From positions 1,216,001 through 1,280,000 of the forward strand of contig CBDCOZ010000003.1 of NCBI GenBank assembly GCA_965220085.1: a stretch of DNA of 64,000 nucleotides, written 5' to 3'. The notes beneath the pieces were generated by a model. It did not search any database. It saw only the letters and a program-made list of their open reading frames with translations, and was not told where the DNA came from. The DNA comes from Candidatus Oxydemutatoraceae bacterium (lineage in GTDB: Bacteria; Pseudomonadota; Gammaproteobacteria; Poriferisulfidales; Oxydemutatoraceae). A program made the position numbers and the translations under genes. Shown here in pieces: positions 2,898 through 44,437 of this stretch. Numbering within the stretch: position 1 is the first letter of the stretch; each line of letters begins with the position of its first letter.

Positions 2898-3012
2898 AAT
2901 TCGCAACCTGAACTTGATTAGATGTGCGCAAACGACATCCGGATGCAGGCAAACAACACTCGATTGTTTCGCAGTGTGACGAATGATTGCTTGTGACTTT
3001 GACTGTGATATG

Positions 3013-3037
3013 CGCAAATAACTAAGCGCTATTTGCG
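3013..3037. promoter_or_regulatory. 25-bp palindrome CGCAAATAAC-TAAGC-GCTATTTGCG, operator-like; weaker copy at ~2949-2972
   Basis: 23/25 identical to the palindromes at 25736-25760 and 28932-28956; ends 6 bp before the GTG at 3044. Confidence 0.6.
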
Positions 3038-3043
3038 CACTGT

Positions 3044-3982
3044 GTGACGATGATAAAAATACAGAACCTTACAAAACGTTTTGGCGCGCGCGTTGCGGTG
3101 GATGACATCAGCTTTGAAGTCGCGCCGGGAGAAGTGCTGGGCTTTCTCGGACCAAACGGCGCCGGCAAATCGACGACGATGAAGATCATCTGCGGTTTTC
3201 TGCCCATGAACGAAGGGCGGATCAGCGTCTGCGGGCACGATGTCGTTTCGGATTCGATTGCCGCCAAATCCTGCATCGGTTATCTGCCGGAAGGCGCTCC
3301 GAGTTATGACGACATGTCGGTGCTCGGTTTCCTGCGCTTCATTTCTCAAGTGCGTCAAATCCCCCCGGCCAAGCGCGAAGAGCGGTTGCAATATGTCATC
3401 GACGAACTCAAGATTGAGGATGTTTTGCAACAGCGCATAGATACGCTGTCAAAAGGCTTCAAGCGCCGGGTCGGGTTGGCGCAGGCCCTGATTCACGACC
3501 CGCAGGTATTAATCATGGACGAGCCGACCGACGGGCTGGACCCGAACCAGAAGCACCATGTGCGGTCGTTGATTAACTCCCTGAGCAAGGAAAAGATCGT
3601 CGTCATATCCACCCACATATTGGAAGAGGTCGAGGCGGTCTGCACCCGGGCGATGATCGTCGCGCGCGGCCGCATCCTGATCGATTCCACCCCGCAGGAG
3701 TTGGTCGGCAAGTCGCGCTATCACCGCGCCATCAGCATCACCGCCGACAATCGGGAAACGGTAGACAAGCTGTGCAAAGGCGAGTCCGGCGTGGAGACGA
3801 TCAGGCATACGCCGCCGGGCAATCAGTGGGTGGTGTTTGCCAAACAGGGCAAGCAGGGCGCCGTCTATGAGCATCTGCATCGTCGCATGCGGGAAAATTC
3901 CGCCGGGGTGCGGGACATACGCATGGAGTCGGGGCGGATGGACGAGGTGTTTCGGGAGATTACCGAAGGGAGTCTGGCATGA
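3044..3982 (+). CDS. ABC transporter ATP-binding subunit, GldA-like
   Basis: GPNGAGKST, LSKGFKRRVG and DEPTDGLDPNQ motifs. Confidence 0.9.
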   Translation: MTMIKIQNLTKRFGARVAVDDISFEVAPGEVLGFLGPNGAGKSTTMKIICGFLPMNEGRISVCGHDVVSDSIAAKSCIGYLPEGAPSYDDMSVLGFLRFISQVRQIPPAKREERLQYVIDELKIEDVLQQRIDTLSKGFKRRVGLAQALIHDPQVLIMDEPTDGLDPNQKHHVRSLINSLSKEKIVVISTHILEEVEAVCTRAMIVARGRILIDSTPQELVGKSRYHRAISITADNRETVDKLCKGESGVETIRHTPPGNQWVVFAKQGKQGAVYEHLHRRMRENSAGVRDIRMESGRMDEVFREITEGSLA

Positions 3983-4716
3983 GCAGTTTGATTGCGGTTG
4001 TGGCGCGGCGGGAGTTTGTGGGTTATTTCGCAACCCCGTTGGCCTATGTTTTCACCATCGTGTTTCTCGCCATGTCGGCGGTTTTCACTTTTTATCTCGG
4101 CAACTTCTTTGAAAGAGGCGAGGCGGATTTGTTGCCATTTTTCCAGTACCACCCGTGGTTGTACTTGTTTTTGATTCCGGCGATTTCAATGCGCCTGTGG
4201 GCCGAGGAGCGCAAGAGCGGCAGCATTGAGCTGTTGATGACATTGCCGATTACGCCGTTGCAGGCGATTCTCGGCAAATATTTTGCCGCGTGGTTGTTTA
4301 CCGGAGTGGTCTTGGCGCTGACGTTCCCGCTATGGATCACCGTCAATTATCTCGGCGAACCGGATAATGGCGTCATCGCATCGGCCTATCTCGGCAGTTT
4401 CCTGATGGCGGGGTCCTTTCTGGCCATCGGCTCGTGCATATCGGCGACGACCAGAAACCAGGTGATCGCATTTATCATCACCATCGTGGTTTGCTTTTTG
4501 CTGCTCCTGAGCAGTCTGTCGCTGGTGCTGGATTTCTTCCGCCCGTGGATGCCGCAATTGTTGCTGGACACCATCGCATCGCTAAGCTTTTTGGCGCACT
4601 TCGCTTCTATCAGCAAGGGGGTGGTCGATTTGCGCGACATCGTTTATTTTGTTTTTATGATTTTATTCTGGCTTGGCGCGAATGCCATCGTTTTGGACAC
4701 TAAGAAAGGCGAATGA
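3979..4716 (+). CDS. ABC-2 permease, GldF-like
   Basis: Multiple TM segments; MRLWAEERKSGSIELLMTLP motif. Confidence 0.88.
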   Translation: MSSLIAVVARREFVGYFATPLAYVFTIVFLAMSAVFTFYLGNFFERGEADLLPFFQYHPWLYLFLIPAISMRLWAEERKSGSIELLMTLPITPLQAILGKYFAAWLFTGVVLALTFPLWITVNYLGEPDNGVIASAYLGSFLMAGSFLAIGSCISATTRNQVIAFIITIVVCFLLLLSSLSLVLDFFRPWMPQLLLDTIASLSFLAHFASISKGVVDLRDIVYFVFMILFWLGANAIVLDTKKGE

Positions 4717-6698
4717 GCAAGCAAGACAACAAGCAAGGCAAAAGCCGCAAAGCGGCGACGGTGCCGCCGAAAGTCATCTACATCACGATGACCGCGCTCT
4801 TTTTGTTGCTGATGACCATTTCCAACGAGACGTTGCGTCACTACCGTTTGGACATGACCGAGAACGATGCGTACACATTGTCCGACAGCACTTTCACGAT
4901 TCTTGAAAAGATCGAGCAACCGATCAATCTGTACCTGTTTTTCTCCGAGCGGTCGAGCCGAGACCGGCCGTTTTTAAGGAAGTACTACGACAAAGTGAAA
5001 GAACTGCTGGAAGAGTTTGAGCTCTATTCCAACGACCGCATACGCCTCCAATTTATCAACCCCGAACCGTTCTCCGAAGAGGAAGATCGCGCCGATAGTT
5101 TTGGTCTTCAGAAAGTGCCGGTGAGGCAAGGCGGCGAATCGCTTTACTTCGGTTTGGCCGGCACCAACGCCATCGGTCACGTGGAAGTGATTCCGTTTTT
5201 GGATTCGCAACGCGAACCCTTTCTGGAATACGACATAGACAAAATGATCTATTCGCTGATCAATCCGGAGAAGCCGGTGCTCGGGCTGATGACTTCTATC
5301 TCCATGTTTCCTTCCGACAACGTATTGCCGGGCGACAAGGCGTGGGTGATTACCGAGCAATTGGAAGAACTGTTTGAAGTGAAAAAGCTCTATCGGGGGC
5401 TTGACGAAATAAAGAGCGACGAGGTCGATGTGCTGATGGTGGTGCATCCGAAAAACCTCGCCGATGTGACCTTGTATGCGATCGACCAATATGTGATGCG
5501 CGGCGGCAAGGCGATATTCTTTGTCGACCCGTATGCCGAGATTGAATATGTGCCGGGCCTCGGCGTGCCGCGTCCCGGCGACGAAACCAAGAGAAGCTCG
5601 TCGTTAAATCGCATCTTCCGCAAATGGGGGTTTGAAGTCAATGCCGATAAGGTCATCGGCGATTCGGCCGCCGCGCTCAGCGTGTCCGCGCCGGGCAAGG
5701 CCGCCGAGCGCGACATCGTGATGGTCGGTTACGGCCCCGGTAACATCGAAGAAGAAGATGTGGCGACCGCGAGGTTGCAACAGATCATCCTCGGCATGCC
5801 GTCTTACATCCGAGTGCTGAACCAGAACAGAATCAAGATGACGCCGTTGATCTGGTCGACCAGGCAGGCGACATTGCTGTCATTGTTGCATGTTTCCAAA
5901 TCGCGCTTTGCCCAACGGCCGTCCATGTTGCTGGAAGGTTTCAAAGCGACCGGCACCGAATACCCGATTGCCGCCAGAATTCGGGGCAAGTTGCCCAGCG
6001 CGTTTGCCAAAGCGCCCGCGCCGGAGCCGGAAGAAGAGGAGGCGCCGGAATTGGAAGAGGGCGAGGAGCCGCCGGAGCCGCCGCCGCCGCCCAAGCCGCG
6101 CGAGGATTTGCCGGCGCATGTCTCCGCAACGGCAGAGGAGGCCAATCTGGTGGTGGTCGCCGATGCCGATATTTTGAGCGACCGCCTGTGGGTGCAGATT
6201 TCAAGGTTTCTGGAGCAGCGGATTTACCGGCCGTTTGCGAATAACCGAGACTTCATCGTCAATACGCTTGAGAACATGACCGGAGACGAGTCGTTGGTCG
6301 GCATCCGCAGTCGCGCGGTCTTCAGTCGTCCGTTCACGCGCATCGAAGAAATTCAACAGGCGGCGAATTTCAAGTTTCAATCGACCGAGGATGCGTTGAA
6401 CAACAAGCTCAAGGAATCCGAAGAGAAACTGAAAGAATTGCAGAGCCAAAGAACCGATACGACTTCCAGTATCCTGACTCCGGAGCAACAGGCCGAAGTC
6501 GCGAAGTCGCGGCAGCAAATGTTGCAGACGCGCAAGCAGCTGCGCGAAGTTAAGCATAGTATGGTCAAAGATATTGATACATTGGTTGCGCAGATTAAAT
6601 TCATTAATATCGGAGGCGTACCGATTCTGATAACTATTTTTGCGGGAGTATTCGCCCTGGTTAAAAGACGCAAGAAAGGAGGCGCAAAACTGTCATGA
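4713..6698 (+). CDS. ABC auxiliary component, GldG-like
   Basis: N-terminal TM, DMTENDAYTLS, IDQYVMRGG, C-terminal coiled coil plus TM; follows the GldA/F-like genes. Confidence 0.85.
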   Translation: MSKQDNKQGKSRKAATVPPKVIYITMTALFLLLMTISNETLRHYRLDMTENDAYTLSDSTFTILEKIEQPINLYLFFSERSSRDRPFLRKYYDKVKELLEEFELYSNDRIRLQFINPEPFSEEEDRADSFGLQKVPVRQGGESLYFGLAGTNAIGHVEVIPFLDSQREPFLEYDIDKMIYSLINPEKPVLGLMTSISMFPSDNVLPGDKAWVITEQLEELFEVKKLYRGLDEIKSDEVDVLMVVHPKNLADVTLYAIDQYVMRGGKAIFFVDPYAEIEYVPGLGVPRPGDETKRSSSLNRIFRKWGFEVNADKVIGDSAAALSVSAPGKAAERDIVMVGYGPGNIEEEDVATARLQQIILGMPSYIRVLNQNRIKMTPLIWSTRQATLLSLLHVSKSRFAQRPSMLLEGFKATGTEYPIAARIRGKLPSAFAKAPAPEPEEEEAPELEEGEEPPEPPPPPKPREDLPAHVSATAEEANLVVVADADILSDRLWVQISRFLEQRIYRPFANNRDFIVNTLENMTGDESLVGIRSRAVFSRPFTRIEEIQQAANFKFQSTEDALNNKLKESEEKLKELQSQRTDTTSSILTPEQQAEVAKSRQQMLQTRKQLREVKHSMVKDIDTLVAQIKFINIGGVPILITIFAGVFALVKRRKKGGAKLS

Positions 6699-7759
6699 AC
6701 CCGAAGACTTTTATAATTCTTGTAACTGCTGTGGTTGCCGCCGCCGGGGCTGTGTTGTTGTTGAATCAGGGCAAGCAGTCCATGGATAACTTCGGGCCGA
6801 TATTTGACGGGTTTGACATAGAAGAAATCAATGATGTGCATGCCTTGAACCTGAGCGCGTCCAGTCGCCGCAGAGTGAGCATGAGCCGCGATGAAGACGG
6901 GCGCTGGCGGGTGCTGGAAAAGAAAAACTACCCCGCTGATTTGGTCAAAATCCGTAAGTTGATGGTTGCTATTTCGGAATCGGAGAAGGTGGAATTAAAG
7001 ACTTCCAGAGCCGAGCAATATACCGAGCTCAAGCTCGCTGATCCTGCGGAAACCGACTACAAGGCCGGGTATCGGGTGGATATCATTACGTCCGATCAGA
7101 CGCGCTCGTTATTCGTCGGCGACATAGCCGAAGGCATAGAGAAGGGACAGTACATTCGCATTCCCGGCGAGAAAGAAAGCTGGCTGGTGAATCAGCGCAT
7201 ATGGATTGATATGGAAGTGGACAAGTGGCTGGACAAGCGCATTCTGCATATGGATCCCGACAACATCCACAAGATTTCCATTACCCCTCCGGAGGGCGAG
7301 ACGATACATGTCGTACGCGCCGCCAAGGGGGAGGAGTTGGCGCTGGAGAATGCGCCCGAAGGACGCAAGCCTAAGGGCGGCGCTGCGATAACCGGCTTGG
7401 CAAAATTCCCCGACTTTCTGGAGTTCAACGAGATACGCAGCCGGGAAAAACTCAAGATACCGGAGGAAGACGTGACCAAAGCGGTGGTCACAACCTTTGA
7501 CGGCCTTGAGTTGCATTACACCGGCTACCCGCAAGGCACGAGACGCCGCTACGGCGTATTTGATGTGAAGGAGAACGCCGAAGTAGCGGAAAAGTTTGGC
7601 ATATCCGAAGAAGACAAGGCGGCGGTCAGCAAGAAATTAGAGCGCTTGACGAATCGCCTGTCGCCTTGGTTCTATGAAATCAGACATACGGCCTACAACC
7701 TGTTCAAGGTTGATATGGAAAAGCTGACCGAAGCGGTAGAAGAAGAGAAAGAAAAGTAA
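6695..7759 (+). CDS. DUF4340-like membrane-anchored protein
   Basis: N-terminal anchor, W..L....YPAD, YIR.PGE..SWLV; usual fourth gene of GldAFG-like operons. Confidence 0.7.
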   Translation: MNPKTFIILVTAVVAAAGAVLLLNQGKQSMDNFGPIFDGFDIEEINDVHALNLSASSRRRVSMSRDEDGRWRVLEKKNYPADLVKIRKLMVAISESEKVELKTSRAEQYTELKLADPAETDYKAGYRVDIITSDQTRSLFVGDIAEGIEKGQYIRIPGEKESWLVNQRIWIDMEVDKWLDKRILHMDPDNIHKISITPPEGETIHVVRAAKGEELALENAPEGRKPKGGAAITGLAKFPDFLEFNEIRSREKLKIPEEDVTKAVVTTFDGLELHYTGYPQGTRRRYGVFDVKENAEVAEKFGISEEDKAAVSKKLERLTNRLSPWFYEIRHTAYNLFKVDMEKLTEAVEEEKEK

Positions 7760-7782: not shown

Positions 7783-9165
7783 CTACTTCAAACGGCTTTT
7801 AATTTCACGTGCGAGTTTGGCGGCGATGCCGGTATAGGTTTCGCTCCGCAGTTCCAATAACGCCCGCTTTTCATCGGTCGGCAAATCCAACTTTTCAATA
7901 AACGTTTGCAGTTGCTTCTCTCCGAGTTCCTGTCCGCGCGACAGCGATTTCAATTGATCGTAGGCGTCTTCTACGCCGTGCTTGCGGAGTATGGTCTGTA
8001 TTGCTTCGGTGAGGACTTCGGGGTGTGCGGCGAGCTCAGCGGCGATAAAGCGACGGTCGGGCGCGATTTTGTCGCAGCCTTTGATGATGCCGTCCAGACC
8101 GAGCACGGTGTGCGCAAAGACGCTGCCGAGCGAGCGCATAACGGTGGAGTCGGACAGGTCGCGTTGCCACCTGGATATGACCAACTTGTCGGCCAGGTGT
8201 CGCGCTAGGGTCGCTGCGATACCGAGATTGCCTTCGGCGTTTTCAAAATCAATCGGGTTGACCTTGTGCGGCATCGTCGACGAACCGACTTCTTGCCGGT
8301 TCGCCTTTTGTATCAGCACGCCGCGCGAGATATACGCCCACATGTCGCGGCAGAAATCGACCAGCGTGTGCGATGCGCGGGCGAGGGCGTCCAGCAATTC
8401 GGCCAAGCGCTCGTGCGGTTCTATCTGCGTCGTGTAGATTGACGCTTGCAGACCGAGCGAGCCCATCATCTTTTCGCTCATCGCGATCCAATCGGCGTCC
8501 GGCCAGGCGCAGTGGTGCGCGTTGTAATTGCCGACCGCGCCGTTCCATTTGGCCGTAATCGGAACGGATTTTATGCAATGCAAGTGGGCGCGGATACGGA
8601 AACAAAAATTCGCGAACTCCTTGCCGACGGTCGTCGGCGAGGCGGCTTGGCCGTGGGTTCTTGACAGCAACGGAAGCTCGGCATATTCAAGCGCCAACGC
8701 CTGCAAGGTCCCCGCCAGATCATCAAGAGCCGGGACGATGATGTTATCCCGCGCGTCTTTGACCATCAGCGCATAGGCGATGCTGTTGATATCTTCCGAG
8801 GTGCAGGCGATGTGGATGAAGGGGCTGTAGCTTGCCAACTCGGGGACGGCTTTTATCTTTTCGCGCAGATATTCCTCAATCGCTTTGACGTCGTGGTTGA
8901 TGTCGCTTTCGATCGCCTTGACCCGCTCGGCCTGCTCGGTATCAAAGCGGTCGGAGATGTCGTCCAGCCGCTTTTCCATGTTGCCATCCAGCGGTGCGAC
9001 GGAGGGGATTTCCTCGCTTGCGGCGAGTATCTTAAGCCACTGTATCTCGGCTTGCAGGCGCCGGCGCATCAGGCCGTACTCACTGAAGTATTCGGATAGC
9101 GCGAGCGTCTTCTTGTGGTAGCGCCCGTCTAACGGGCTGATGGCGGTCAAAGGGGAGAGAGGCAT
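7783..9165 (-). CDS. purB: Adenylosuccinate lyase
   Basis: ISPLDGRY, GSSTMPHKVNPIDFENAEGN and SRWQRDLSDS motifs. Confidence 0.97.
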   Translation of the reverse strand: MPLSPLTAISPLDGRYHKKTLALSEYFSEYGLMRRRLQAEIQWLKILAASEEIPSVAPLDGNMEKRLDDISDRFDTEQAERVKAIESDINHDVKAIEEYLREKIKAVPELASYSPFIHIACTSEDINSIAYALMVKDARDNIIVPALDDLAGTLQALALEYAELPLLSRTHGQAASPTTVGKEFANFCFRIRAHLHCIKSVPITAKWNGAVGNYNAHHCAWPDADWIAMSEKMMGSLGLQASIYTTQIEPHERLAELLDALARASHTLVDFCRDMWAYISRGVLIQKANRQEVGSSTMPHKVNPIDFENAEGNLGIAATLARHLADKLVISRWQRDLSDSTVMRSLGSVFAHTVLGLDGIIKGCDKIAPDRRFIAAELAAHPEVLTEAIQTILRKHGVEDAYDQLKSLSRGQELGEKQLQTFIEKLDLPTDEKRALLELRSETYTGIAAKLAREIKSRLK

Positions 9166-9603: not shown

Positions 9604-10764
9604 ATGAAAACAGTACATAGAATGTTGAGTTTTGAATTGCCCGGAGGCCAATCAGCCTTTCTGTGGGGGCCGCGCAAAACCGGTAAATCCACCTGGCTTA
9701 AACAGACATTCCCCGACAGTATCGTCTTTGATTTTCTGAAGACGGATGTTGCTTTTGACTACATCAGAAACCCTGCGCTGGTACGCGAGCGATTATACCC
9801 GGTTATGGAGCAAGCTCTTGCCGCACCTGTCATCTTGGATGAAGTGCAAAAAATCCCCGCAATACTTGATGAAGTACATTGGCTTATTGAGAATGAAGGG
9901 CTGCGTTTTATTCTGTGCGGATCGAGCGCGCGGAAATTGAAAAGAGGACAAGCAAATCTGCTTGGCGGTCGGGCCTGGCGGTATGAGATGTTTCCGTTTG
10001 TCTATCCCGAACTCAAAGATGCGAACCTGTTGCAAATTCTCAACCATGGGCTGATTCCTTCACATTACTTGCAGCAGAACTATCGGCAATCTCTGCGGGC
10101 ATATGTGAGGGACTATCTCAAGGAAGAAGTATTCAACGAAGGGTTAATCAGGAACATTACCGCCTTCTCCCGCTTTTTTGAAGCGATGGGATATAGCCAT
10201 GGGGAGCTGGTCAATTATGCGAGCATTGGGAGAGACTGCGGCATGGACTCCAAGTCAGTAAAAGAGTATTTCCAGATTCTGGTTGACACCTTGCTCGGGA
10301 CTTACGTCACACCATTCAAAAAAAGACAGCACCGGCAAGTCATAAGCAAGGCACCAAAGTTTTATCTCTTTGATGTCGGCGTCGCCGGACAATTACAAAA
10401 TCGCAAGATTGACGAAGCGCGCGGCGAGCATTTCGGCAGAGCATTAGAGCACTACATATTCATGGAGATTAATGCGCATCGCGCGTATCAAGACCTTCAT
10501 TATGAAATTAATTTTTGGAGGACAAAAACAGGGCTTGAAGTAGACTTCATTTTGGCAAATGGCGAAGTCGCAGTGGAGGTGAAGGGCAGCAACCGCATAG
10601 ATAATCACGACCTGAAGTCAATTCGTGCCTTCCAAAACGAGCACAAAGCGAAGTTTGCAATTGTAGTCGCTAACGAGAAGCAGGAACGCAAGGTCGGGGA
10701 TATTACTATTTTGCCGTGGCAGGTCTTCCTCGACCGGCTATGGAGCGGGAAAATACTGAGCTAG
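9604..10764 (+). CDS. AAA ATPase with C-terminal DUF4143/PD-(D/E)xK-like domain
   Basis: GPRKTGKST, LDEVQK, GSSARKL, PKFYLFDVG and EVDFIL...VEVK motifs. Confidence 0.85.
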   Translation: MKTVHRMLSFELPGGQSAFLWGPRKTGKSTWLKQTFPDSIVFDFLKTDVAFDYIRNPALVRERLYPVMEQALAAPVILDEVQKIPAILDEVHWLIENEGLRFILCGSSARKLKRGQANLLGGRAWRYEMFPFVYPELKDANLLQILNHGLIPSHYLQQNYRQSLRAYVRDYLKEEVFNEGLIRNITAFSRFFEAMGYSHGELVNYASIGRDCGMDSKSVKEYFQILVDTLLGTYVTPFKKRQHRQVISKAPKFYLFDVGVAGQLQNRKIDEARGEHFGRALEHYIFMEINAHRAYQDLHYEINFWRTKTGLEVDFILANGEVAVEVKGSNRIDNHDLKSIRAFQNEHKAKFAIVVANEKQERKVGDITILPWQVFLDRLWSGKILS

Positions 10765-10769
10765 TAGGC

Positions 10770-11010
10770 ATCGTTGAAAGGGGAGTGCAACGAACACCTC
10801 CCTCGCGGGAGGGGTGCTCGCACCAAGTGCAGAGTCTGAGCCGTAGGCAAAAAGTGATGCAACGGAGAGGGGGAAACACTTGCACTAAGAAAGCTGAAAG
10901 CACACCCCCTCTCCGGCTCGCCTGCGGCTTGCCGACTCCCCACGAGGGGGGAGTAGGGAATGGTGCGAAGTGTTTCCCCGCCAGCGTAGCGTTGCTACGC
11001 TGACCCTCCC
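10770..11010. repeat. REP/MITE-like palindromic element cluster
   Basis: CTCCCTCGCGGGAG and CTCCCCACGAGGGGGGAG hairpins; inverse-related to 13140-13400. Confidence 0.6.
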
Positions 11011-11011
11011 G

Positions 11012-11480
11012 CAGATTGTAGTTTTTGCGGTCTGCGGCAGTATGTGCAAATTTTGCACACACTGAATCTTGCCAGAGTTCTTTGGAGTCAAATATGCTTT
11101 TCAGGCGCTTGGTGATGGCATACCCTTGAATTGCAAATTTTCGGAGTGCTTGCGTCGCCCATTGGCGGAATTGGGCGGCGCGTCTGGAATTGACGCGGTA
11201 GCCTACGGATATGATGGCATCCAGATTGTAGTAGTTGGTGTTGTAGGTTTTGCCGTCTGCGGCAGTTATCCGGAATTTCCGGATAACTGAATCTTCTTGC
11301 AATTCATCGCTTGCGAGTATGTTTTGCAGGTGCTCGCTGACAGTACGCACATCCGCATCAAACAACTCCGCCATTAACTTTTGCGTCAGCCAGGTGGTTT
11401 CATCTTCGTAGCGCGCTTCTATGTCGTCTTCGCCGGCTTGCCGGGTAAAAATCAGAAACTCGGCGGTGCTACTGCGGATG
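11012..11480 (-). pseudogene. RhuM-family protein fragments
   Basis: WLTQKLMAELF...RKFRITAADGKTY..YYNLDAIISVGYRVNS..A.QFRQWA, then truncated and followed by a second partial copy (CAKFAHTAAD). Confidence 0.8.
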
Positions 11481-11650
11481 GTCGGGCAGACCGATGACTG
11501 CATCCAGCAGGTTGTCATCAATCAGCGGTTGTACGCATCGGCACTGGCTTCCTCAGCACCCCACTTGTCGAGAGAAAAGGGCGGATTGGCGATGATGTTG
11601 TCGAACTTCATCAGGGCGTTGTCTTCTACCAAGGCAGGGCTCTTGGCTAT
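11481..11650 (-). pseudogene. Type I R-M methyltransferase (HsdM) remnant
   Basis: Hand translation gives LMKFDNIIANPPFSLDKWGAEE, then IDDNLLDAVIGLP in another frame. Confidence 0.75.
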
Positions 11651-11722
11651 AAGGAGTCGTCAAGCATAGCGCACCGGAGAAGGGAGCGATAATATCGTGC
11701 AAGAGTTTCCAAACTCTGCCAC

Positions 11723-12064
11723 CTATTTCTTTTTAGTCTTTTTGGCAGAGGTGGTTCTTTTCGTTCTCCTCGTTATATGGGATCCCGCTTGTGAGCCAAG
11801 CTCCATGAACTCAATGACATCCTCCTGCACGGAGTAGGCATAGAGGATACGAAGCGATGACCCTTTCAAGGTGCGGCAAAACAGCCGGGATTTGATAAGG
11901 CACACAGCATCATCAGTTTGTGTGAGGCAGCGGGAGTGCTTGCTACCTCGCGGACGAACAGAAAGTACCGCCCGAAACGTTTTCAGGGCCTCGGCTAATG
12001 AGTCGTACTTCTTAGCTAGGCGTTTATAGTCGGCTTGAAATTTGGAGCATTCGTTAAACTGCAT
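11723..12064 (-). CDS. Putative RelE/ParE-superfamily toxin
   Basis: Small basic protein, F.ADYKRLAKKY.SL...LRILYAY; start overlaps the end of the upstream antitoxin. Confidence 0.55.
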   Translation of the reverse strand: MQFNECSKFQADYKRLAKKYDSLAEALKTFRAVLSVRPRGSKHSRCLTQTDDAVCLIKSRLFCRTLKGSSLRILYAYSVQEDVIEFMELGSQAGSHITRRTKRTTSAKKTKKK

Positions 12065-12821
12065 CGCGATAACTTCTCGCGGAGTATTTCTCGTCACGGT
12101 AAAAAACACTTTCGTAAGCGAGCGCTTGGCCATATTCCGCGGATAACCAGGGGATGTCTCCGTGCGCATGGTTTTCTATCTCTTTGTCACTCTTGTCCGA
12201 TAGGCGCGCCAGCACCGCATCGATATGTTCTTTGTCACGCGCAGAGAAGGCGCTTAGATCAGAATTCTTTTGTGGAAGATATTTCTTCTGCGTGTAGTTA
12301 TGATATTTAGTCTTGACGACTTTAATCTCTTCTTGCTCTTGCATCTCTCTCAGAATAGCCCCTAAATCAACCGAGGTCGGGCCGTGATGGTTCTTGATAT
12401 AAGTAGCCCCCATCAGGTTTTCTTCAAACTTTTCATAGTAGTCAAAGTCGATGAAGTAGAGCAGTTTGTGCAGGACAGTTTCGCCAACATTCGGTTTGGC
12501 GCCCACTTTAATCAGCACATAGAGGATGACTTGCTTGAACTTGTCCAAGTCTTTGGCAAGAACGCGGATGTGCAATGCCTTTTGCTTTTTTCGTGATGCC
12601 TTCTCAATCGTTACTCTACGCTTGGTTTCCTCTTCATTGAGAAAATCCTGTAACGGGATATCAAAGACCGCTGCCAGCCTCTTCGCTTCGGATATGGTGA
12701 GCTCTCTCTTACCGCTTTCAATCTGCGTATATGTCGGGCGCGATATGCGAAGCTCTGTCGCCAGCTCTTTTTGCGTTATCTCTTTTTTAGTACGTTGTTT
12801 GCGGATGAACTCTCCAAGCAT
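12054..12821 (-). CDS. XRE-HTH plus DUF4065 (Panacea/SocA) antitoxin-like protein
   Basis: N-terminal HTH (ITQKELATELRISRPTYTQIESG); LHKLLYFIDF...HGP and H.DIPW motifs. Confidence 0.8.
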   Translation of the reverse strand: MLGEFIRKQRTKKEITQKELATELRISRPTYTQIESGKRELTISEAKRLAAVFDIPLQDFLNEEETKRRVTIEKASRKKQKALHIRVLAKDLDKFKQVILYVLIKVGAKPNVGETVLHKLLYFIDFDYYEKFEENLMGATYIKNHHGPTSVDLGAILREMQEQEEIKVVKTKYHNYTQKKYLPQKNSDLSAFSARDKEHIDAVLARLSDKSDKEIENHAHGDIPWLSAEYGQALAYESVFYRDEKYSARSYRDAV

Positions 12822-12949
12822 CTCCAGCCTCCTTGAAAAGTATGATTGATAATGTTTATATAACTTACATCATAAATGTAAATATTTCAAACCTTATGCA
12901 AACGCCGGCTTAGGCAGCGCGATTATGCGGGACACTTGCACTATGCATC

Positions 12950-13405
12950 GCTCCACCCTCGTAGAAGAGTGCTTGCACCGTACATCACTCCCCCCTTGCG
13001 GGGGAGTCGGCAAGCCAAGGGGCTGACTAGCAGGCGGCTTGGCGGTAGCCACTCCGGCACTCTCCTCTCGCACTATCCCCGCAGGCGCGCCGGAGAGGGG
13101 GAGAGTTTCATACCCGCACTAATGTTGTGCAAGCTGGAAGCTTTCCCCCTCTCCGTTGCGTCGCCTTTTGCATACGGCTCCTCTGTACTTCGTGCGAGCA
13201 CCCCTCCCGCAAGGGGAGAGTAATGGTTAGCTTAGTGCAAGTGTTTCCCCCTCTCCGCATCGTCCTTCGCCTGCGGCTCGGTCTCTGCACTTGGTGCAAA
13301 CTAGAAACTTTCCCACAAGGAATATTAGTAGTGGAACAATTCTCCCGCAAGGGGAGAGTGATGTTGGCTAGGTGTGAGCACCCCTCCCGCGAGGGGGGAG
13401 AGTGA
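12950..13405. repeat. Cluster of REP/MITE-like palindromic elements
   Basis: Repeated CCCCTCCCGCAAGGGGAGAG hairpins and TTTCCCCCTCTCCG..CGTC..TTCGCC units. Confidence 0.7.
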
Positions 13406-13469
13406 CGCGCACTGACGGTGTGCAGGGTATTCGTGTCGGTTTCGGATATACTACGACTCTCACAGAACA

Positions 13470-22851: not shown

Positions 22852-23589
22852 CTATCGCAACGGGCCTTCCAGAAAGATGCGCAAGCGCATCCGTAATCCC
22901 GTGAAAACGCATTGACCGCCGACGAGGGGGGAGAGTCCGCCGTGCGGGGCTGAGGAGCGAGTCGCGCCTTGTCGGATATGTGACGGTTTCGCGCATCTGC
23001 ATTCAATCGCGCCAATGGTGTTGATGGTTGCCGGAATCAAACCGCGCGTCCCGTCCGGGTCGCAGTTGTAAACGTATCGCGAATCGCTTCCGTCCTCCGG
23101 TCTTTGCGGAAACTCCAAGTTGGGGCCAAAAGCGTCGTAGCAATTGCCGCCGGAAGAGTATGTGCACTGACTGCCCGTGCTACCGCTGGCAAGGTCCCAA
23201 TGCCCCACCAGACACCGGCTGAGAGAGATAACGGATTGCCAACCTCTCTCCTCGCATTTTTCTTTCGGCATCACGCATCTGCGATCCAACGTCACTTTTC
23301 CCGTCGGACAAGTTTTCACGCATTCGTTTCCGTCACGGAATTCGTCCGTTGCGCAGGATTGTGCTTGGGCCTGAGCGGATACGATGAAAAAGGCGAGCAG
23401 AAAGAGCGACCGGAGGCCGCACCTGCTTAACTTAATGTGGAGGGGGGGGGGGGGGGGGCAAACGGATGCTAACGTGCTTGCACGGAATTGTGCGGCGTTA
23501 AAAAGCGCGGTGCGGGTTTTCAACCTTCCGCAGAAGATTTGAATCGTGCGTCCGCGAATGAAAGAGTTCGGAGTCATATTGCAAATCAT
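22852..23589 (-). CDS. Exported Cys-rich protein, LEGPLR family member 1 (poly-C17, in frame)
   Basis: Conserved leader, G17 at 23442-23458, signal peptide ending AQAQAQ, many Cys, ends LRMRLRIFLEGPLR*. Confidence 0.8.
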   Translation of the reverse strand: MICNMTPNSFIRGRTIQIFCGRLKTRTALFNAAQFRASTLASVCPPPPPLHIKLSRCGLRSLFLLAFFIVSAQAQAQSCATDEFRDGNECVKTCPTGKVTLDRRCVMPKEKCEERGWQSVISLSRCLVGHWDLASGSTGSQCTYSSGGNCYDAFGPNLEFPQRPEDGSDSRYVYNCDPDGTRGLIPATINTIGAIECRCAKPSHIRQGATRSSAPHGGLSPLVGGQCVFTGLRMRLRIFLEGPLR

Positions 23590-23612: not shown

Positions 23613-23716
23613 CACAAACAACTGAGTGTTGTTTGTGCTCTTATTACCGTGCCTCATTAAATGCCGTTTGCGTACACAGAAGTCCACACTATATACGATT
23701 TGCACCCGCCTTGCAA
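23613..23716 (-). promoter_or_regulatory. Sigma70-like promoter TTGCAA-N17-TATAGT plus palindrome CACAAACAAC-TGAGT-GTTGTTTGTG
   Basis: -35 at 23711-23716, -10 at 23688-23693, palindrome at 23613-23637; conserved in paralogous leaders. Confidence 0.6.
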
Positions 23717-23779: not shown

Positions 23780-24152
23780 TGGTCACACGCTCCCCTCGCA
23801 GGAGAAGCGCAGAGTCCGCTATAACTCCGAGCTTTTTTGAAAGTTGCAGAATTCGATCCACAGGCGATGGATGATGCAGTGAAGAGAAAGCTTCGTACTT
23901 GCGCCGACCACACGCTCCCCTCGCAGGAGAAGCGCAGAGTCCGCTATAACTCCGAGTTTTTTTGACAGTCGCAGAATTCGAGCTACAGGTGGCGGACGAT
24001 GCAAAGAGTGTTACTTGCACCATGCAAGGGGTGAGTGTTACTCGCACTAGGCAACGGAGAGTGTCGCTTGCGCCAGGCAAGGGGAGCGTGTCACTCGCAC
24101 TCGGCAAGGGGTGAGTGTTGCTTGCGCTAAGCAAGGAGAAATGTCGCTTGCA
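23780..24152. repeat. Inter-cassette repeats: ~120-bp units plus a degenerate ~28-30-bp tandem array
   Basis: GAGTCCGCTATAACTCCGAG units, then GAGTGTTACTTGCAC-like units running up to the gene stop codon. Confidence 0.75.
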
Positions 24153-25712
24153 CTACCGCAACGGGCCTTCAAGAAAGAGACGCAGGCGCAAGCGTATATT
24201 GGCTCTGACCACCGGCGCAACGGAAGTCCAACAACGCATCTCGCTACCGCCGTCATCATCATCAAAGGCGGCGCAGACACGGAGGAGTTTGCCCGCCTGC
24301 CCCTGCATGGGAGCGAAGGTCGCAGAGGCAGCGCCGGGGATATTCGTGATATCGTCGGGCAACTGCGGTGCGCGGGCGAAAAGGCACTCAACAAACTGCC
24401 GATAAGTTGAGTCGGTGTTTCCGATGCACACCAAATTCTCGTCAATTTCATTAAACATGTGAGTGGCGAGAGACCGCGAAGGTCCGCTTGTTTGGAGACC
24501 GTCAAAAATTTGCTGAACGGCATCCAGCATGTCGCCATAGTTTTCGTCGCGGACGAGATAGGACACAAACGCGGTCAGCACGGCATCTCCGATGTCCATA
24601 AGGCCCTGATGCGTCTGTGCGTCCCTTGCGGCGACTATCCCGTCGTATATTTCCTTCGCCGTTCCCGTGAGGGTGGCGGTGGAGACGGTCGCAGTTTCAA
24701 CTTCCTGCCACTGCCAGACGGGGGCGAAGGCAGTGATGTCATTGGCATCGTCTATCGTGCCGATGGATGCGGTCAGTGTGCTGCCCACATTGGGCCCGTC
24801 CATGGTCAGGTCAGCGCCGTCCGCCGCCGTCACCGCCGGTTCGCCGCTGGCTACAGCGTTGACCTTCGCAACGGAAGTCCAGCAACGCGTCTCGCTGTTG
24901 CCGGCATCATCATCAAAGGCGACGCAGACACGAAGGAATTTGCCCGCCTGCGCCTGCATGGGAGCGAAGGCCTCAGCGGTAGCGCCAGGGATATTCGTGA
25001 CATCAGGCATCTGCGGAATTTGAGAGAACAAGCAATGCGTGTATGTCTTTCTGAAAATGTTGCCGCTGCCGACGCACGGCGAGCGGTTAACCCCGCTGGC
25101 CTGCTCCACCACTTCAAAAAGGGCTCCGCCGCTGGCGAAAACTTGTCCGGAAGCGTCATTGGCAAGCGCTCCAAGCGAATGGGTCTCGTAATAGTCGTCG
25201 TCGCGCAGAAGGTAAGACACAAACGCGTCTCGATACGCCATTGCCGCCGTCGCCAATATCGTGTTGGGCGAGGAAAACCACGCCGTGAACCCGTCATAAA
25301 CCTCCTTCGCCGTTCCCGTGGTCGCAACTTCAACCTCCTGCCACTGCCAGACGATGGCGCCATCGGCATCGGCTATCGTGCCCGTAGTTGCGGTCAGCAC
25401 ACTGTTCACATTGGGCCCGTTCGTGGTCAGGTCGGTGCCGTCCGCCGCCGTGACCGCCGGTTCGCCAGCAACGGCAGTGTTGGTCTGCGCCTGCGCTTGA
25501 CCGCAGACGATGATTAGGGCGAGCAGAAAGAGCGACCGGAGGCCGCACCTGCTTAACTTAATGTGGCAAAGGGGGGGGGGGGGGGGGGGGGGGTAAACGG
25601 ATGCTAACGTGCTTGCACGGAATTGTGCGGCGTTAAAAAGCGCGGTGCGGGTTTTCAACCTTCCGCAGAAGATTTGAATCGCGCGTCCGCGAACGAAAGA
25701 GTTCAGAGTCAT
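24153..25712 (-). CDS. Exported protein with two Ig-like repeats, LEGPLR family member 2 (poly-C23, in frame)
   Basis: G23 at 25571-25593; signal peptide; two GEPAVTAADG...WQWQ...RVC..F.DD repeats; ends IRLRLRLFLEGPLR*. Confidence 0.85.
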   Translation of the reverse strand: MTLNSFVRGRAIQIFCGRLKTRTALFNAAQFRASTLASVYPPPPPPPLCHIKLSRCGLRSLFLLALIIVCGQAQAQTNTAVAGEPAVTAADGTDLTTNGPNVNSVLTATTGTIADADGAIVWQWQEVEVATTGTAKEVYDGFTAWFSSPNTILATAAMAYRDAFVSYLLRDDDYYETHSLGALANDASGQVFASGGALFEVVEQASGVNRSPCVGSGNIFRKTYTHCLFSQIPQMPDVTNIPGATAEAFAPMQAQAGKFLRVCVAFDDDAGNSETRCWTSVAKVNAVASGEPAVTAADGADLTMDGPNVGSTLTASIGTIDDANDITAFAPVWQWQEVETATVSTATLTGTAKEIYDGIVAARDAQTHQGLMDIGDAVLTAFVSYLVRDENYGDMLDAVQQIFDGLQTSGPSRSLATHMFNEIDENLVCIGNTDSTYRQFVECLFARAPQLPDDITNIPGAASATFAPMQGQAGKLLRVCAAFDDDDGGSEMRCWTSVAPVVRANIRLRLRLFLEGPLR

Positions 25713-25735: not shown

Positions 25736-25848
25736 CACAAATAACTAAGCGTTATTTGCGTACATATCTTCCTATATCCCGCGAGCAACTAAGTGTTGTT
25801 TGCGTGCACAGAAGCCCACACTATACACGATTTGCACCCGCCTTGCAA
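25736..25848 (-). promoter_or_regulatory. Promoter TTGCAA-N17-TATAGT and 25-bp palindrome
   Basis: -35 at 25843-25848, -10 at 25820-25825, palindrome at 25736-25760. Confidence 0.6.
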
Positions 25849-26879
25849 CTGGCTGTATGATGCCAGTACATATTGGAAACTTTGGGCAAATATTGTGTAA
25901 TTTGTGCCATAGGTGTTTGGAGCCTCAATCCATAATGTGGTCGTTGGGTATTAAACCATAGCAGGTAGTCTATCATACGCTCATTGAATTCCCGAATATC
26001 GGTCAGCAACAAGCCCTCTTCAAACTCCACAAACTCTTCCTGGAGCGTGCGGTTAAAGCGTTCATTGAATGCGTTCATCTTCGGACATTTGGGATACGTG
26101 TAGCAGTGCCGGATACCTTGCTCTTGCAGGCAGCGATCAAACGCGCCGCAGAACTCGGAGCCGTTGTCGGTGAGCACTTGCTCTATCTTGGCGGGGAACA
26201 CTTCCATCATCAGCTTCATAAAGAACTCGGCGGCGATGCTGTTGCCACGAGGGACGCCGATAGCAAAGCCAAACCGGCTATGCAAATCTACGGCCGTGAA
26301 CAGATAGCGACGCTGACCTTGAATAAACCGTTGCACGGTATCCATAGCGATGCAATGCCCGATACGCTTTGCATTGAAACCCTTTTCAAGACGCTCCTTG
26401 CGCTTGCTTTGCGGTGTGCGTTGCCGACGCGGTTTTGCGGGCACCCAGCGCATCTTATCGGCTTCGCCGGCAATCAGTCGCGCGATGGTGCGCGGCTTGG
26501 GACAACGCAAGCCGCGCTCGTCACACCACGGTTGAATCAGCAGGTATATCTTGGGTGCGCCGTAGGGATAGTTTTCGCGGTGTCGCCGAATCTCGGCGAT
26601 AATCTCCTCAGGCCAGTTGCGCCGGCGTGGCTGGCGCGGGCAAGTGCTCTGATTGATTAAGCCGTTAATGCCATAAAGCCGATATTGTCTCCGCCACTCA
26701 TAGAGTGATGATTTGCTGATGTGGTAAGCGTCCATGCTGGCTTTTATGTTGTGGTTCTCCCATAATATAAGGGCTTCAAGTTTCTGTTTTGCTTTATAGC
26801 TCATAGTTGCCTCGTCTATTGAAAAAGCAGCTATTTTATAGAAACCTTTGATGCCGTGGCCGATGTGTTGATATTGCAT
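25821..26879 (-). CDS. IS481-family DDE transposase
   Basis: N-terminal HTH, MDT, TDNGSEF, NERFNRTLQEEF and N.QRPH motifs; stop codon lies in flanking DNA. Confidence 0.88.
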   Translation of the reverse strand: MQYQHIGHGIKGFYKIAAFSIDEATMSYKAKQKLEALILWENHNIKASMDAYHISKSSLYEWRRQYRLYGINGLINQSTCPRQPRRRNWPEEIIAEIRRHRENYPYGAPKIYLLIQPWCDERGLRCPKPRTIARLIAGEADKMRWVPAKPRRQRTPQSKRKERLEKGFNAKRIGHCIAMDTVQRFIQGQRRYLFTAVDLHSRFGFAIGVPRGNSIAAEFFMKLMMEVFPAKIEQVLTDNGSEFCGAFDRCLQEQGIRHCYTYPKCPKMNAFNERFNRTLQEEFVEFEEGLLLTDIREFNERMIDYLLWFNTQRPHYGLRLQTPMAQITQYLPKVSNMYWHHTASCKAGANRV

Positions 26880-26934
26880 GTCGGCTACGTTTGTTGTTGA
26901 AGCCAAGAATCCAGAATGTTTCTGGCATTATGCA
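25854..26934 (-). mobile_element. IS481-family insertion sequence (~1.08 kb)
   Basis: Imperfect IRs TGTATGATGCCAG.. and ..CTGGCATTATGCA; interrupts a leader that is intact at ~29040-29060. Confidence 0.8.
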
Positions 26935-26989: not shown

Positions 26990-27533
26990 TACTTGCGCCG
27001 GTCACACGCTCCTCAGCGGGGGAGGCGCAGAGTCCGCTATGACTCCGAACTTTTTTGAAAGTTGCAGAGCCCGAGCCACAGGCGATAGACGATGCAGTGA
27101 AGAGAAAGCTTCGTGCTTGCGCCGGTCACACGCTCCTCAGCGGGGGAGGCGCAGAGTCCGCTATGACTCCGAACTTTTTTGAAAGTTGCAGAGCCCGAGC
27201 CACAGGCGATAGACGATGCAGTGAAGAGAAAGCTTCGTGCTTGCGCCGGCCACACTCTCCTCGAGAGAGAGTCGCAAAGTCCGAGCCACAGGCGATGGAC
27301 GATGCGGTGAAGAGAAAGCTTCGTGCTTGCGCCAACTACACTTCCTCTCTGGTGCGCTTGCGGAGATAGTGCGAGGAACGTACCGGAGTAACTACCGCCA
27401 GTCAGCCCCCAAGGAAGCATGTGTGCAAGTCCCGCGAAGGAATTGCTTCCCGCTACCGCAACGGAGAATGTTACTTGCACCATGCAAGGAGTGAGTGTTA
27501 CTCGCACTACCGCAAAGGAAGGTGTCACTTGCA
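26990..27533. repeat. Inter-cassette repeats: tandem ~121-bp units, a REP-like fragment and a ~30-bp array
   Basis: CCGGTCACACGCTCCTCAGCGGGGGAGGCGCAGAGTCCGC repeated at ~26998 and ~27122. Confidence 0.75.
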
Positions 27534-28908
27534 CTACCGCAACGGGCCTTCCAGGAAGATGCGCAACCGCAAGCGCAAACTGCCGGGCACAACACGGGCG
27601 GCGACGGAGCAGAGCGTCTCGCTGACCGGCATCGGATGGCTGTCCATGAAACTTGCGCAGACTCTTATGTATTGTCCCACCTGCTCCTGGCCTGGGGTGA
27701 ATATGGTGGTGGTGGCATCGGTGATGGCGGAGTAGTCGTTATCCGCCGGGGTGCCGGAGTCCGGGGCAACGGCCTGTTGCCATTGCCACATCAGGGTGCT
27801 GCCATCTATGCCGTTAGGTTCGGTTATGCCTCCTACGCCAGTAGACAGCCGGGTGCCCTCGGCGTAGGTCGGGTTCTCTGCAGTGGTGACCGGGATTATG
27901 CCAGGTCTGCCAGAGGCGGCGACCTGAGCCGCCACCACCAGACGAATGCTGGCTATGGCGTTGTTGGTGCTGGTTTTGTTGTCGGTGCCATCGCTGCCAT
28001 CGTCCACCACATTGAAGTTGAAAGAGGTGTAAGCGTCGCCAAGGTCGTCGGGGTCGTTGGGCTCCTGGCCTGATTCCGGGTAATAGGTCAGTTCCCTGGC
28101 GGTCAGTTGGGCCACAGTTATTTCCATTGTGGGAACATCGGCGTTGGTCAGGACTGTGCCATCCAGAGCCATAGTGCCGCGGAATGGCAATGTTTGTACG
28201 ATGACGGCAGCCAGCATATCGTCATCGGCATCGGTGAGCGGGAAGTCGGTTGCCTTGAATATGTATGGGTTGGCGGCATTGGCGTTGACATTTACCGTGA
28301 GCGCTCTTGTGGTGAATAAATTGCTTGCCGTCGGCTTGTCATTGATGTTGGCCACGGCGGTGGCTATCTGCAGGCATCGCATCTCCGAGTTGGGGGTGGT
28401 GGCCATATCCATGAACGATGCGCAGACCTGCAGAAACTTGCCCACCTCATCATCGCCCGGAATGAAAGCGGCATTGGTCGCGCCGGCTATGGCGGTGTAG
28501 GTGCCGCCGTTGGCGGTGGCCGCGCTCCATTGCCAACTGAATGTGCCCAAGCCATCGGTGTCGGCTATGGCGGTGGAACCGTTGCCGCCGTTGGCAGTGA
28601 TGGCGGAGTCCTCAGTGGGGGTGTTGCCGCTGGCGTAGGTGACGGCGGGTGTGCCGGTGGCCGGGCTGTTGCTCTGCGCTTGCGCCTGAGCGGATAAAAT
28701 GAAAAATGTGAGCAGAAAAAGTGACCGGAAGCCGCACCCGCTTAACTTAATGCGGAGGGGGGGGGGGGGGGGGGGGGTAAACGGATGCTAACGTGCTTGC
28801 ACGGAATTGTGCGACGTTAAAAAGCGCGGTGCGGGTTTTTAACCTCCCGCAGAAAATTTGAATCGCGCGTCCGCGAATGAAAGAGTTCGGAGCCATATCA
28901 CAAATCAT
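27534..28908 (-). pseudogene. LEGPLR family member 3, Ig/cadherin-like repeats; frameshifted at poly-C21 (phase-OFF or homopolymer error)
   Basis: Leader MICDMAPNSFIRGR from 28908 hits TAA after G21 (28757-28777); the other frame gives the signal peptide and runs open to LRLRLRIFLEGPLR* at 27534. Confidence 0.8.
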
Positions 28909-28931: not shown

Positions 28932-29044
28932 CACAAATAACTAAGCGTTATTTGCGTACATATCTTCCTATATCCCGCGAGCAACTAAGTGTTGTTTGCG
29001 TACACAGAAGCCCACACTATACACGATTTGCACCCGCCTTGCAA
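28932..29044 (-). promoter_or_regulatory. Promoter TTGCAA-N17-TATAGT and 25-bp palindrome
   Basis: -35 at 29039-29044, -10 at 29016-29021, palindrome at 28932-28956. Confidence 0.6.
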
Positions 29045-29099: not shown

Positions 29100-29321
29100 T
29101 ACTTGCGCCGGTCACACGCTCCTCAGCGGGGGAGGCGCAGAGCCCGCTATGACTCCGAACTTTTTTGAGAGTCCGAGCCACAGGCGGTGGACGATGCAAA
29201 GAATGTTACTTGCACTAAGCAACGGAGAATGTTGCTTGCGCTCAGCAAGGGGTGAGTGTTGCTTGCACTACCGCAAGGGGCGAGTGTTACTTGCACCAGA
29301 CAAGGGTGAGTGTTACTTGCG
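29100..29321. repeat. Inter-cassette repeats (partial 120-bp unit plus ~30-bp array)
   Basis: Same units as 23780-24152. Confidence 0.7.
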
Positions 29322-29407
29322 CTACCGCAACGCCCCTTCAAGAAAGATGCGCAACCGCAACAGCAAGCGCAAGGGGCGCACACGAGCGGCGACAGAGCAG
29401 AGCGGGG
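29322..29407 (-). pseudogene. 3' remnant of a LEGPLR family gene
   Basis: Hand translation gives PLCSVAARVRPLRLLLRLRIFLEGALR*; no leader or signal peptide upstream. Confidence 0.75.
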
Positions 29408-44430: not shown

Positions 44431-44437
44431 AAGGCGC

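Follow-up and report, generated by a model that had tools for sequence, protein, structure and literature searches.

The window analysed here, a 64,000-nt stretch from a Candidatus Oxydemutatoraceae bacterium, carries an ATP-binding cassette (ABC) transporter operon whose leader contains a short palindrome that recurs in front of a family of genes encoding proteins ending in LEGPLR. The operon consists of four overlapping genes on the plus strand, starting at an ATG at position 3050: a gldA-like gene encoding an ABC ATPase (3050-3982), a gldF-like gene encoding an ABC-2 permease (3979-4716), a gldG-like gene encoding an auxiliary protein (4713-6698) and, as its last gene, one encoding a DUF4340 protein (6695-7759). 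An msbA-like gene, lpxK and kdsB are found upstream, while purB (7783-9165), convergent to the operon, follows the DUF4340 gene. An earlier note on this DNA had called the locus a GldA/F/G-DUF4340 ABC operon, and Pfam supports this call, with matches to ABC_tran, ABC-2 permease, ABC_transp_aux plus DUF7088, and DUF4340 on the four adjacent products, respectively, which is the composition expected of the four-gene module. The top-ranking NCBIfam models of the first three products are GldA, GldF and GldG, all with scores below their equivalog cutoffs (TIGR03522, 284.1 bits for a cutoff of 402.6; TIGR03518, 174.1 bits for 288.5; TIGR03521, 120.3 bits for 389.85), which is why we describe the operon as GldAFG-like rather than as a bona fide gliding-motility transporter. 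It has the same three-protein architecture as the GldA/GldF/GldG gliding-motility ABC transporter of Flavobacterium johnsoniae, from which it nevertheless differs by these sub-cutoff scores, by the attached DUF4340 gene, by its msbA-lpxK-kdsB synteny and by its gammaproteobacterium-like host.

ABC modules of the GldAFG-like/DUF4340 kind are frequent in Proteobacteria and also occur outside this group. According to a study on SAR11, a DUF4340 orthologue group is conserved near ABC-transporter genes and is predicted to form a complex (PMC13712998), and a transposon study on Verrucomicrobium spinosum places a DUF4340 gene among the essential genes (PMC12283558). No assigned substrate for such modules was found in the literature searched, and a search combining GldA/F/G and Proteobacteria returned nothing on the function of GldA/F/G outside Bacteroidota.

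The palindrome that drew attention to the operon is the 25-mer CGCAAATAACTAAGCGCTATTTGCG, at 3013-3037, hereafter site B. It reads CGCAAATAAC-TAAGC-GCTATTTGCG, belongs to the T-class and does lie directly upstream of the operon as had been claimed, with 12 nt separating its end from the ATG (3050). The weaker site mentioned by the earlier note is also real and occupies 2948-2972 (GGCAAACAACACTCGATTGTTTCGC, or GGCAAACAAC-ACTCG-ATTGTTTCGC; hereafter site A). It is of the C-class, with a C-G pair at arm position 7, and when its central 20 nt are aligned in reverse orientation with the variant present at 23613 and 62194, 18 of 20 positions agree, with an alignment score of 30 when 200 shuffles never exceeded 28. 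The dyad centres of sites A and B are 65 bp apart, and a lone half-site on the plus strand (CGCAAACGAC, 2927-2936) stands 21 nt before the left arm of site A. A predicted sigma-70-like promoter (TTGATA-18-TAGAAT, 10/12 consensus matches) overlaps the kdsB stop codon on the plus strand (2871-2900) and, if it is used, all copies of the motif in this leader would be within transcribed sequence.

The block GTGTGACGA(A)TGAT also occurs twice in this leader, once after site A (2975-2989) and once after site B (3042-3056), where it holds the gldA-like start codon. This pair resembles a partial tandem duplication of a site together with its start context, and it generates two upstream open reading frames (ORFs), one of 12 codons (2984-3022) and one of 3 codons (ATG CGC AAA TAA, 3010-3021), each terminating within the left arm of site B.

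Copies of the dyad motif and the LEGPLR genes

The sequence CACAAATAACTAAGCGTTATTTGCG is found twice in the window, at 25736-25760 and at 28932-28956, and it differs from CGCAAATAACTAAGCGCTATTTGCG at 2 of 25 positions only (positions 2 and 17), the spacer TAAGC being common to all three copies. A degenerate pattern covering the ABC and LEGPLR copies matched at 3013, 25736 and 28932 only and never in 100 dinucleotide shuffles of the window, so that the similarity described in the earlier note stands. The two matches at 25736 and 28932 must however be counted as a single observation, since both lie within a 141-nt leader that is duplicated with 99% identity, and they are not the only ones: additional copies were found at 23613, 25780, 28976, 43998, 44583 and 62194, together with more compact variants.

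Altogether, the motif is a dyad made of two 10-nt arms around a 5-nt spacer, with the consensus CRCAAAYAAY-TRAGY-RTTRTTTGYG, in which the spacer (TRAGY) is also conserved. Its compact form, CRCAAAC-N-GTTTGYG, reuses the outer heptamer in a 7-1-7 arrangement whose halves are 10 bp, or about one helical turn, closer than in the long form; it occurs at 43980-43994 and 44565-44579, and in a degenerate version at 62222-62236. Across the 6 distinct copies of the long dyad, 91.7% of the arm cells are paired, demonstrating dyad symmetry.

Five LEGPLR genes of the window have retained their 5' end (22852-23589, 24153-25712, 27534-~28770, 46198-47817 and 60697-62031), and the motif was found 5' of all five. 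In front of the gene at 22852-23589 (minus strand), the third tandem paralog, a perfect dyad (CACAAACAACTGAGTGTTGTTTGTG, or CACAAACAAC-TGAGT-GTTGTTTGTG) lies at 23613-23637 with an extra half-site at 23592. The gene at 24153-25712 (minus strand; LEG2) is preceded by two dyads (25736-25760 and 25780-25804) with centres 44 bp apart, and by an extra half-site at 25715 that overlaps its ribosome-binding region; the duplicate of this pair (28932-28956 and 28976-29000) precedes the gene at 27534-~28770 (minus strand). A half-site at 43969 is followed by the compact dyad CGCAAAC-A-GTTTGTG (43980-43994) and by the long dyad CACAAACAAT-ACTTA-ATTGTTTGTG (43998-44022), with 23 bp between the two dyad centres. 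Further on, seven half-sites form an array at 44545-44663, three in one direction and then four reversed, spaced by 18-23 nt and including the compact dyad at 44565-44579 and a long dyad at 44583-44606; this array is the control region of the gene at 46198-47817, from which it has been severed by the insertion of an IS1595-family element. Finally, the gene at 60697-62031 (minus strand) has a long dyad identical to the 23613 copy at 62194-62218, 163 nt 5' of its ATG (62031), next to the degenerate compact dyad at 62222-62236, again with centres 23 bp apart.

The arrangement of these sites is regular. Dyad centres are separated by 23 bp at the three loci of the LEG4/LEG6 type, where compact and long dyads are paired, by 44 bp in leaders of the LEG2/LEG3 type (25736/28932) and by 65 bp between sites A and B, a series increasing by steps of 21 in which each value equals 2.0 modulo 10.5, and these spacings come from three non-homologous contexts. 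In addition, four loci have a dyad that is preceded, at a distance of exactly 21 nt, by an extra half-site: in the ABC leader (2927/site A) and at 23592/23613, 25715/25736 and 28911/28932.

The motif is also restricted in its distribution. Scanning the window for YRCAAAY-N(0-15)-RTTTGYR gave 9 matches, compared with a mean of 0.55 and a maximum of 5 in 200 simulated sequences, and all 9 fell either 5' of a LEGPLR gene or between kdsB and gldA, in six regions altogether. A looser dyad scan gave 11 matches for a mean of 2.05 expected, 10 of them in these same regions, the last one (2+2 mismatches, inside clpA) being probably due to chance. The density of the 6-mer half cores is 17.0 per kb over the 2,240 nt of the six regions (38 occurrences) and 1.67 per kb in the rest of the window, and the one exact lone half-site in a coding region (12794) is about what chance would give. 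Using the gene map built in this analysis, 6 of the 23 intergenic gaps of at least 50 nt contain the motif, namely the gap between kdsB and gldA and those lying 5' of the five LEGPLR genes, while the remaining 17 gaps and the coding DNA of the window are devoid of it. The earlier note had warned that a palindrome present at many unrelated loci, or a repeat fragment, would undermine its proposal; since the copies are limited to six regions, the palindrome is not, within the window, a repeat dispersed over unrelated loci. Over these 64 kb, it does not show the many intergenic copies, irrespective of the neighbouring gene, that are expected of repetitive extragenic palindromes (REP), bacterial interspersed mosaic elements (BIME) or miniature inverted-repeat transposable elements (MITE), and it does recur at several control regions while being rare elsewhere, as is expected of an operator.

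Local alignments of the kdsB-gldA gap with every LEGPLR 5' region found similarity at the motif instances only (24/26 positions with a score of 42, and 18/20 with a score of 30, for a shuffle maximum of 28), with flanking sequences at the level of shuffles. With a specific shared cis-element and similarity confined to that element, the co-regulation with LEGPLR genes that had been proposed is a plausible reading.

Seven reading frames of the window end in ...LRLR(L/I)FLEG(P/A)LR: the five genes listed above and two 3' remnants (29325-29345 and 62428-62448). A protein search with the product of the gene at 60697 returned 39 proteins, 33 of which (query included) are encoded on one contig of 2,046,636 bp, five on three other contigs, and the last one being a distant Mesorhizobium protein. 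LEGPLR is the terminus of 35 of these 39 proteins, and most of them have a signal peptide ending in ...CAQAQAQ. The invariant C-terminus of the family is LRLRLFLEGPLR, and it has been kept through synonymous codon changes, which argues that selection acts on the protein. Pfam detected weak Ig-like, cadherin-like and He_PIG domains only, and NCBIfam returned only a sub-threshold match to the ZirU family (27 bits for a cutoff of 100). The LEGPLR family is, by these features, a lineage-restricted and hyper-expanded set of predicted secreted or surface proteins that belongs essentially to one genome.

Four of the five LEGPLR genes carry a poly-C tract of 17-23 nt in their 5' coding region, visible as G runs on the plus strand at 23442-23458 (17 nt), 25571-25593 (23 nt), 28757-28777 (21 nt) and 61985-62006 (22 nt), and the gene at 46198-47817 has a C run of 9 nt (46223-46231). 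These tracts encode poly-proline between the ATG and the signal peptide, and the gene at 27534-~28770 is out of frame across its 21-nt tract when the others are in frame. Such tracts are the signature of slipped-strand phase variation and would act as an ON/OFF switch. Phase-variable surface genes with poly-G or poly-C tracts are known from Neisseria, Haemophilus and Campylobacter. LEGPLR genes resemble these contingency families by their poly-C tract in the 5' coding region and by a frame-shifted paralog, and differ from them by their own invariant C-terminus, by their leader dyads and by being found essentially in one genome.

The operon and the motif in relatives

We compared the locus with 80 loci of about 20 kb each (not whole genomes) that were retrieved with the GldG-like protein and kept from one scan. 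The nearest GldG relatives, with 50-53% identity, come from Ca. Oxydemutator and Ca. Porisulfidus metagenome-assembled genomes (MAGs) and from a gammaproteobacterial MAG, and the others from many Gamma-, Alpha- and Betaproteobacteria, with a few MAGs of Planctomycetota, Sumerlaeota and Bdellovibrionales. A gldA-like gene is adjacent in 68 of the 69 loci with enough upstream sequence, a gldF-like gene in 74/80 and a DUF4340-like gene in 57/77. The four nearest relatives (L001-L004) even keep the msbA-lpxK-kdsB-gldAFG-DUF4340(-purB) synteny. By its distribution, the operon is thus old and widespread, and it is linked in these four relatives to lipid A/lipopolysaccharide genes.

The palindrome behaves differently. 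None of the 80 loci contains a full match to it or a LEGPLR C-terminus, so that the co-occurrence of operon and motif family that the earlier note suggested looking for is absent from this set. Direct inspection of the kdsB-gldA or equivalent upstream regions of L001-L003 revealed no related sequence. Loose dyad matches (up to 2 substitutions) numbered 12 in 11 of the 80 loci; two in L065 look like chance, and one in L053 (~8217) is, judging from coordinates only, near the expected start of the gldA-like gene. An exact-pattern scan with the degenerate 25-mer gave no match in 185,579 species genomes, a collection that includes neither the source genome nor its close relatives. The leader palindromes are, on this distribution, probably a recent and lineage-specific acquisition.

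We also considered a start-proximal palindrome as a general feature of such operons. Dyads with arms of at least 9 bp within 150 nt upstream were present in 11 of 49 loci, compared with about 10% of shuffles; 8 of these 11 were G+C-rich and none was motif-like, so this candidate was rejected. Separately, L001 and L002, the two nearest G+C-rich relatives, share a short conserved block, TT(A/C)(C/A)AAATAGCGCCCG (8280-8300 in both), about 40-55 nt before their gldA-like ATG. It may be a promoter or operator of their own, and its layout is unrelated to that of the window dyads.

These comparisons also bear on the proposal that the operon is the trafficking or maturation machinery of LEGPLR proteins. 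Since the module is old and widespread, since the relatives' loci lack a LEGPLR gene and since the family is nearly confined to one contig (33/39), the operon appears to long predate the LEGPLR family, and nothing found here supports the proposal: at most, the operon would have been recruited into the LEGPLR regulon.

Operator, hairpin or passenger copy

Our tentative preference, held with less than even confidence, is that the palindrome is a DNA operator of a multimeric regulator and that the ABC operon belongs to the LEGPLR regulon. A sequence-specific regulator, probably a dimer of dimers or a larger assembly, would recognise the half-site CRCAAAY(AAY), which would be used singly, in 10-5-10 dyads or in compact 7-1-7 dyads, within arrays that keep a helical phase in the promoter and leader DNA of the window's LEGPLR genes with a retained 5' end. 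In the ABC leader, the half-site at 2927 and sites A and B would all be located downstream of the predicted promoter and ahead of the start codon; a protein occupying them, perhaps with a loop from site A to site B, would most simply repress the operon, which would then share a regulon with the phase-variable LEGPLR surface proteins. In the LEG2 leader too, the sites lie between a predicted promoter (TTGCAA-17-TATAGT, 25848-25820, minus strand) and the start codon, a position that suits a repressor. What the sequence demonstrates is the motif with its copies, their restricted distribution, their geometry and their dyad symmetry; we infer that a protein binds, that its effect would be negative and that the ABC copies are functional.

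Multi-operator repressor systems with helically phased dyads include lac O1/O2/O3, gal OE/OI, deo and ara. As in these systems, the window has several dyads per control region in one helical phase (23, 44 and 65 bp), located at or downstream of a predicted promoter. It departs from them by its 10-bp arms, by its conserved 5-nt spacer, by the use of the same half-site at 7-1-7 and 7-11-7 and by the covariation of its arms, which is atypical for operator sets. The operator of PurR and other LacI-family proteins is a 16-bp box with the half-site CGCAAAC, and LacI-type boxes are even in length with a central CpG. Relative to such a box, the outer half-site CGCAAAC/GTTTGCG is the same heptamer and CGCAAAC-A-GTTTGTG (43980-43994) is box-like, but the halves are here 1 or 11 nt apart and the window contains no LacI-family gene. 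The literature searched, including searches with the four arm 10-mers, gave no description of a CRCAAAYAAY dyad motif; judged by titles and the opening of abstracts, none of the papers returned for the arm 10-mers deals with a bacterial operator, one of them being about a LysR regulator of Brucella.

Several observations weigh against an operator. The arms covary, 4 of the 10 pairs changing on both sides among the 6 distinct copies (T-A to C-G at position 7, C-G to T-A at position 10, A-T to G-C at position 2 and C-G to G-C at position 1), a score reached by none of 500 shuffles. Recognition by a symmetric dimer predicts neither such covariation nor the conserved TRAGY spacer, while both fit a hairpin or copying. 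In L001-L004, the nearest relatives available, the orthologous operons lack the palindrome, even if conservation in front of orthologues is a weak test here, because these relatives are distant (GldG identity of at most 53%). The promoters are consensus matches only, and Pfam reveals no candidate cognate regulator gene in the window. Finally, many copies are related by gene-family duplication, which leaves few independent observations, with about three contexts for the spacing.

Covariation and a conserved loop are what one would expect if the dyads were instead RNA hairpins in 5' leaders, acting as attenuator or terminator, stability element, translation regulator or target of an RNA-binding protein. 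The sites are indeed just 5' of start codons (12 nt for the ABC operon, 23 nt for LEG2), the 10-bp hairpin does form in the predicted fold of the LEG2 leader, and on the LEGPLR sense strand a hairpin followed by a T-run is flagged as terminator-like at 25760-25736 and 62218-62194. These hairpins have only 3-4 G-C pairs, however, and sites A and B are not followed by any T-run on the plus strand, which does not fit a terminator or attenuator at the ABC operon. In the predicted minimum free energy fold of the ABC leader, the arms of site B are not paired with each other and the 10-5-10 hairpin is absent; the folds predicted for the ABC and LEG2 leaders have weak z-scores (-2.08 and -1.10), and Rfam 15 at gathering score found only two tRNAs in the whole window and no RNA family at the ABC leader. 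Lone half-sites without partner arm, such as those standing in the phased array at 44545-44663, cannot form hairpins, and 7-1-7 dyads cannot form comparable ones. Sites occur in either orientation relative to the downstream gene, the spacer (and thus the putative loop) of site B being inverted with respect to that of the LEGPLR copies when site A is in the LEGPLR orientation, and mismatches show no strand bias: read on the sense strand, one copy has G.U and another has A.C. Because of the half-site arrays, the 7-1-7 form, the phasing, the orientations, the unbiased mismatches, the missing T-run and fold at the ABC operon and the lack of an Rfam match, we favour a DNA operator and regard an RNA element as improbable. 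We also considered a classic attenuator, in which tandem dyads would make segments 1:2, 2:3 and 3:4 and the mini-ORFs would be ATG-CGC-AAA-TAA at 3010 and, in the LEG2 leader, an ORF of 6 codons. It was discarded because the leaders of LEG1, LEG4 and LEG6 have no such mini-ORFs.

For both the covariation and the conserved spacer, descent is the best explanation, the copies having spread by duplication, and quasi-palindromes can be re-perfected by template switching. Since site B is very close to the LEG2/LEG3 variant, spacer included, the sites of the ABC leader seem to have been copied from a LEGPLR leader and not to have arisen by convergence. What was copied could then be a passenger: pieces of a LEGPLR leader gained through recombination, template switching or a lost LEGPLR gene, with little or no regulatory effect and a resemblance due to descent only. 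LEGPLR genes and remnants are dense and mobile here, with seven C-termini in 64 kb and insertion sequence (IS) elements inside two leaders. Site B matches the LEG2/LEG3 variant at 23/25 positions including the non-palindromic spacer, and site A matches a different variant, as copying would give. Moreover, the ABC copy looks young, since the operons of L001-L004 lack the site and no start-proximal palindrome is general to such operons. Against this, only the motif instances are shared and nothing else of a 200-300-nt LEGPLR leader is present, when the neutral decay of a larger insert should have eroded the palindromes as much as their flanks; in addition, sites A and B have stayed in helical phase, and the half-site-21-nt-dyad geometry persists. 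We judge a passenger copy unlikely, yet the most serious of the alternatives. Far less credible is a mobile or recombination palindrome, either REP-like and moved by a RAYT or IS200-type enzyme, or the core site of a recombinase shuffling or inverting LEGPLR loci. A 10-5-10 dyad with an asymmetric conserved spacer does recall recombinase core sites, the spacers of sites A and B are oppositely oriented, and the genome has other hairpin repeats (12,900-13,400). As in REP and BIME, the palindromes are short, imperfect and intergenic, with arms kept complementary; unlike them, they sit at the 5' regions of one gene family and one operon rather than being scattered at gene 3' ends, with 0/17 other intergenic gaps occupied, and some half-sites stand alone in phased arrays. 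The window showed no gene for a recombinase, a RAYT or an IS200-family enzyme, target-site duplications are not consistent, and the 65 bp between sites A and B would be very short for an invertible segment.

A specific cis-element shared with a lineage-specific phase-variable surface family leads to the testable hypothesis of one regulator and one regulon, and could offer a handle on how a large repertoire of contingency genes is controlled in a small-genome, host-associated bacterium. It is conceivable, and in our view very unlikely, that a master regulator couples the poly-C phase-variable LEGPLR repertoire (at least 36 paralogs in a 2.05-Mb genome) to a GldAFG-like/DUF4340 envelope exporter supplying the needs of its display, either by protein export or anchoring through the LRLRLFLEGPLR tag or by export of a lipid or glycan partner; were this true, it would provide a first physiological client for these widespread orphan transporters. 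If the ABC copy is a passenger, it would still illustrate cleanly how a regulatory module can move out of a gene family and enter the leader of a housekeeping operon.

Mobile elements and repeats of the window

Two IS elements have inserted close to LEGPLR genes. An IS1595-family element (~44807-46187; transposase at 44911-45846) with inverted ends GGGGAATTATGTATTTAACTTGACAGAGG / CCTCTGTCAAGTTAAATACATAATTCCC and an 8-bp target duplication (AGAAATAG) lies 2-3 nt before the ATG of the gene at 46198, which it separates from a dyad-rich control region. An rve-type IS (~25851-26933; transposase at 25821-26906, minus strand) lies just past the predicted promoter of the gene at 24153-25712, and the alignment to the paralogous leader at 29044 resumes beyond it, at 26934. 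A transposase fragment is also found at ~44200-44450.

This genome has several repeat families. Tandem repeats of ~27 nt, each with a CTTGC-N5-GCAAG hairpin, are found directly 3' of LEGPLR genes (24005-24151, 27465-27531 and 29200-29320), as are repeats of 121-125 nt 3' of such genes (23798-24043 and 27016-27346). A different hairpin repeat (CCCCTCCCGCAAGGGGAGAG-like, 12900-13420), unrelated to the CRCAAAYAAY dyads, fills the 650-nt gap between the HTH/SocA gene and fumC. A small island of genes of defence or mobile type (9604-12821) encodes an AAA_14/DUF4143 ATPase, a RhuM-family protein and an HTH_3 plus SocA/Panacea antitoxin-like protein whose gene overlaps a 148-aa ORF, and a TdeIII-type restriction endonuclease is encoded at the far end of the window (62968-63807).

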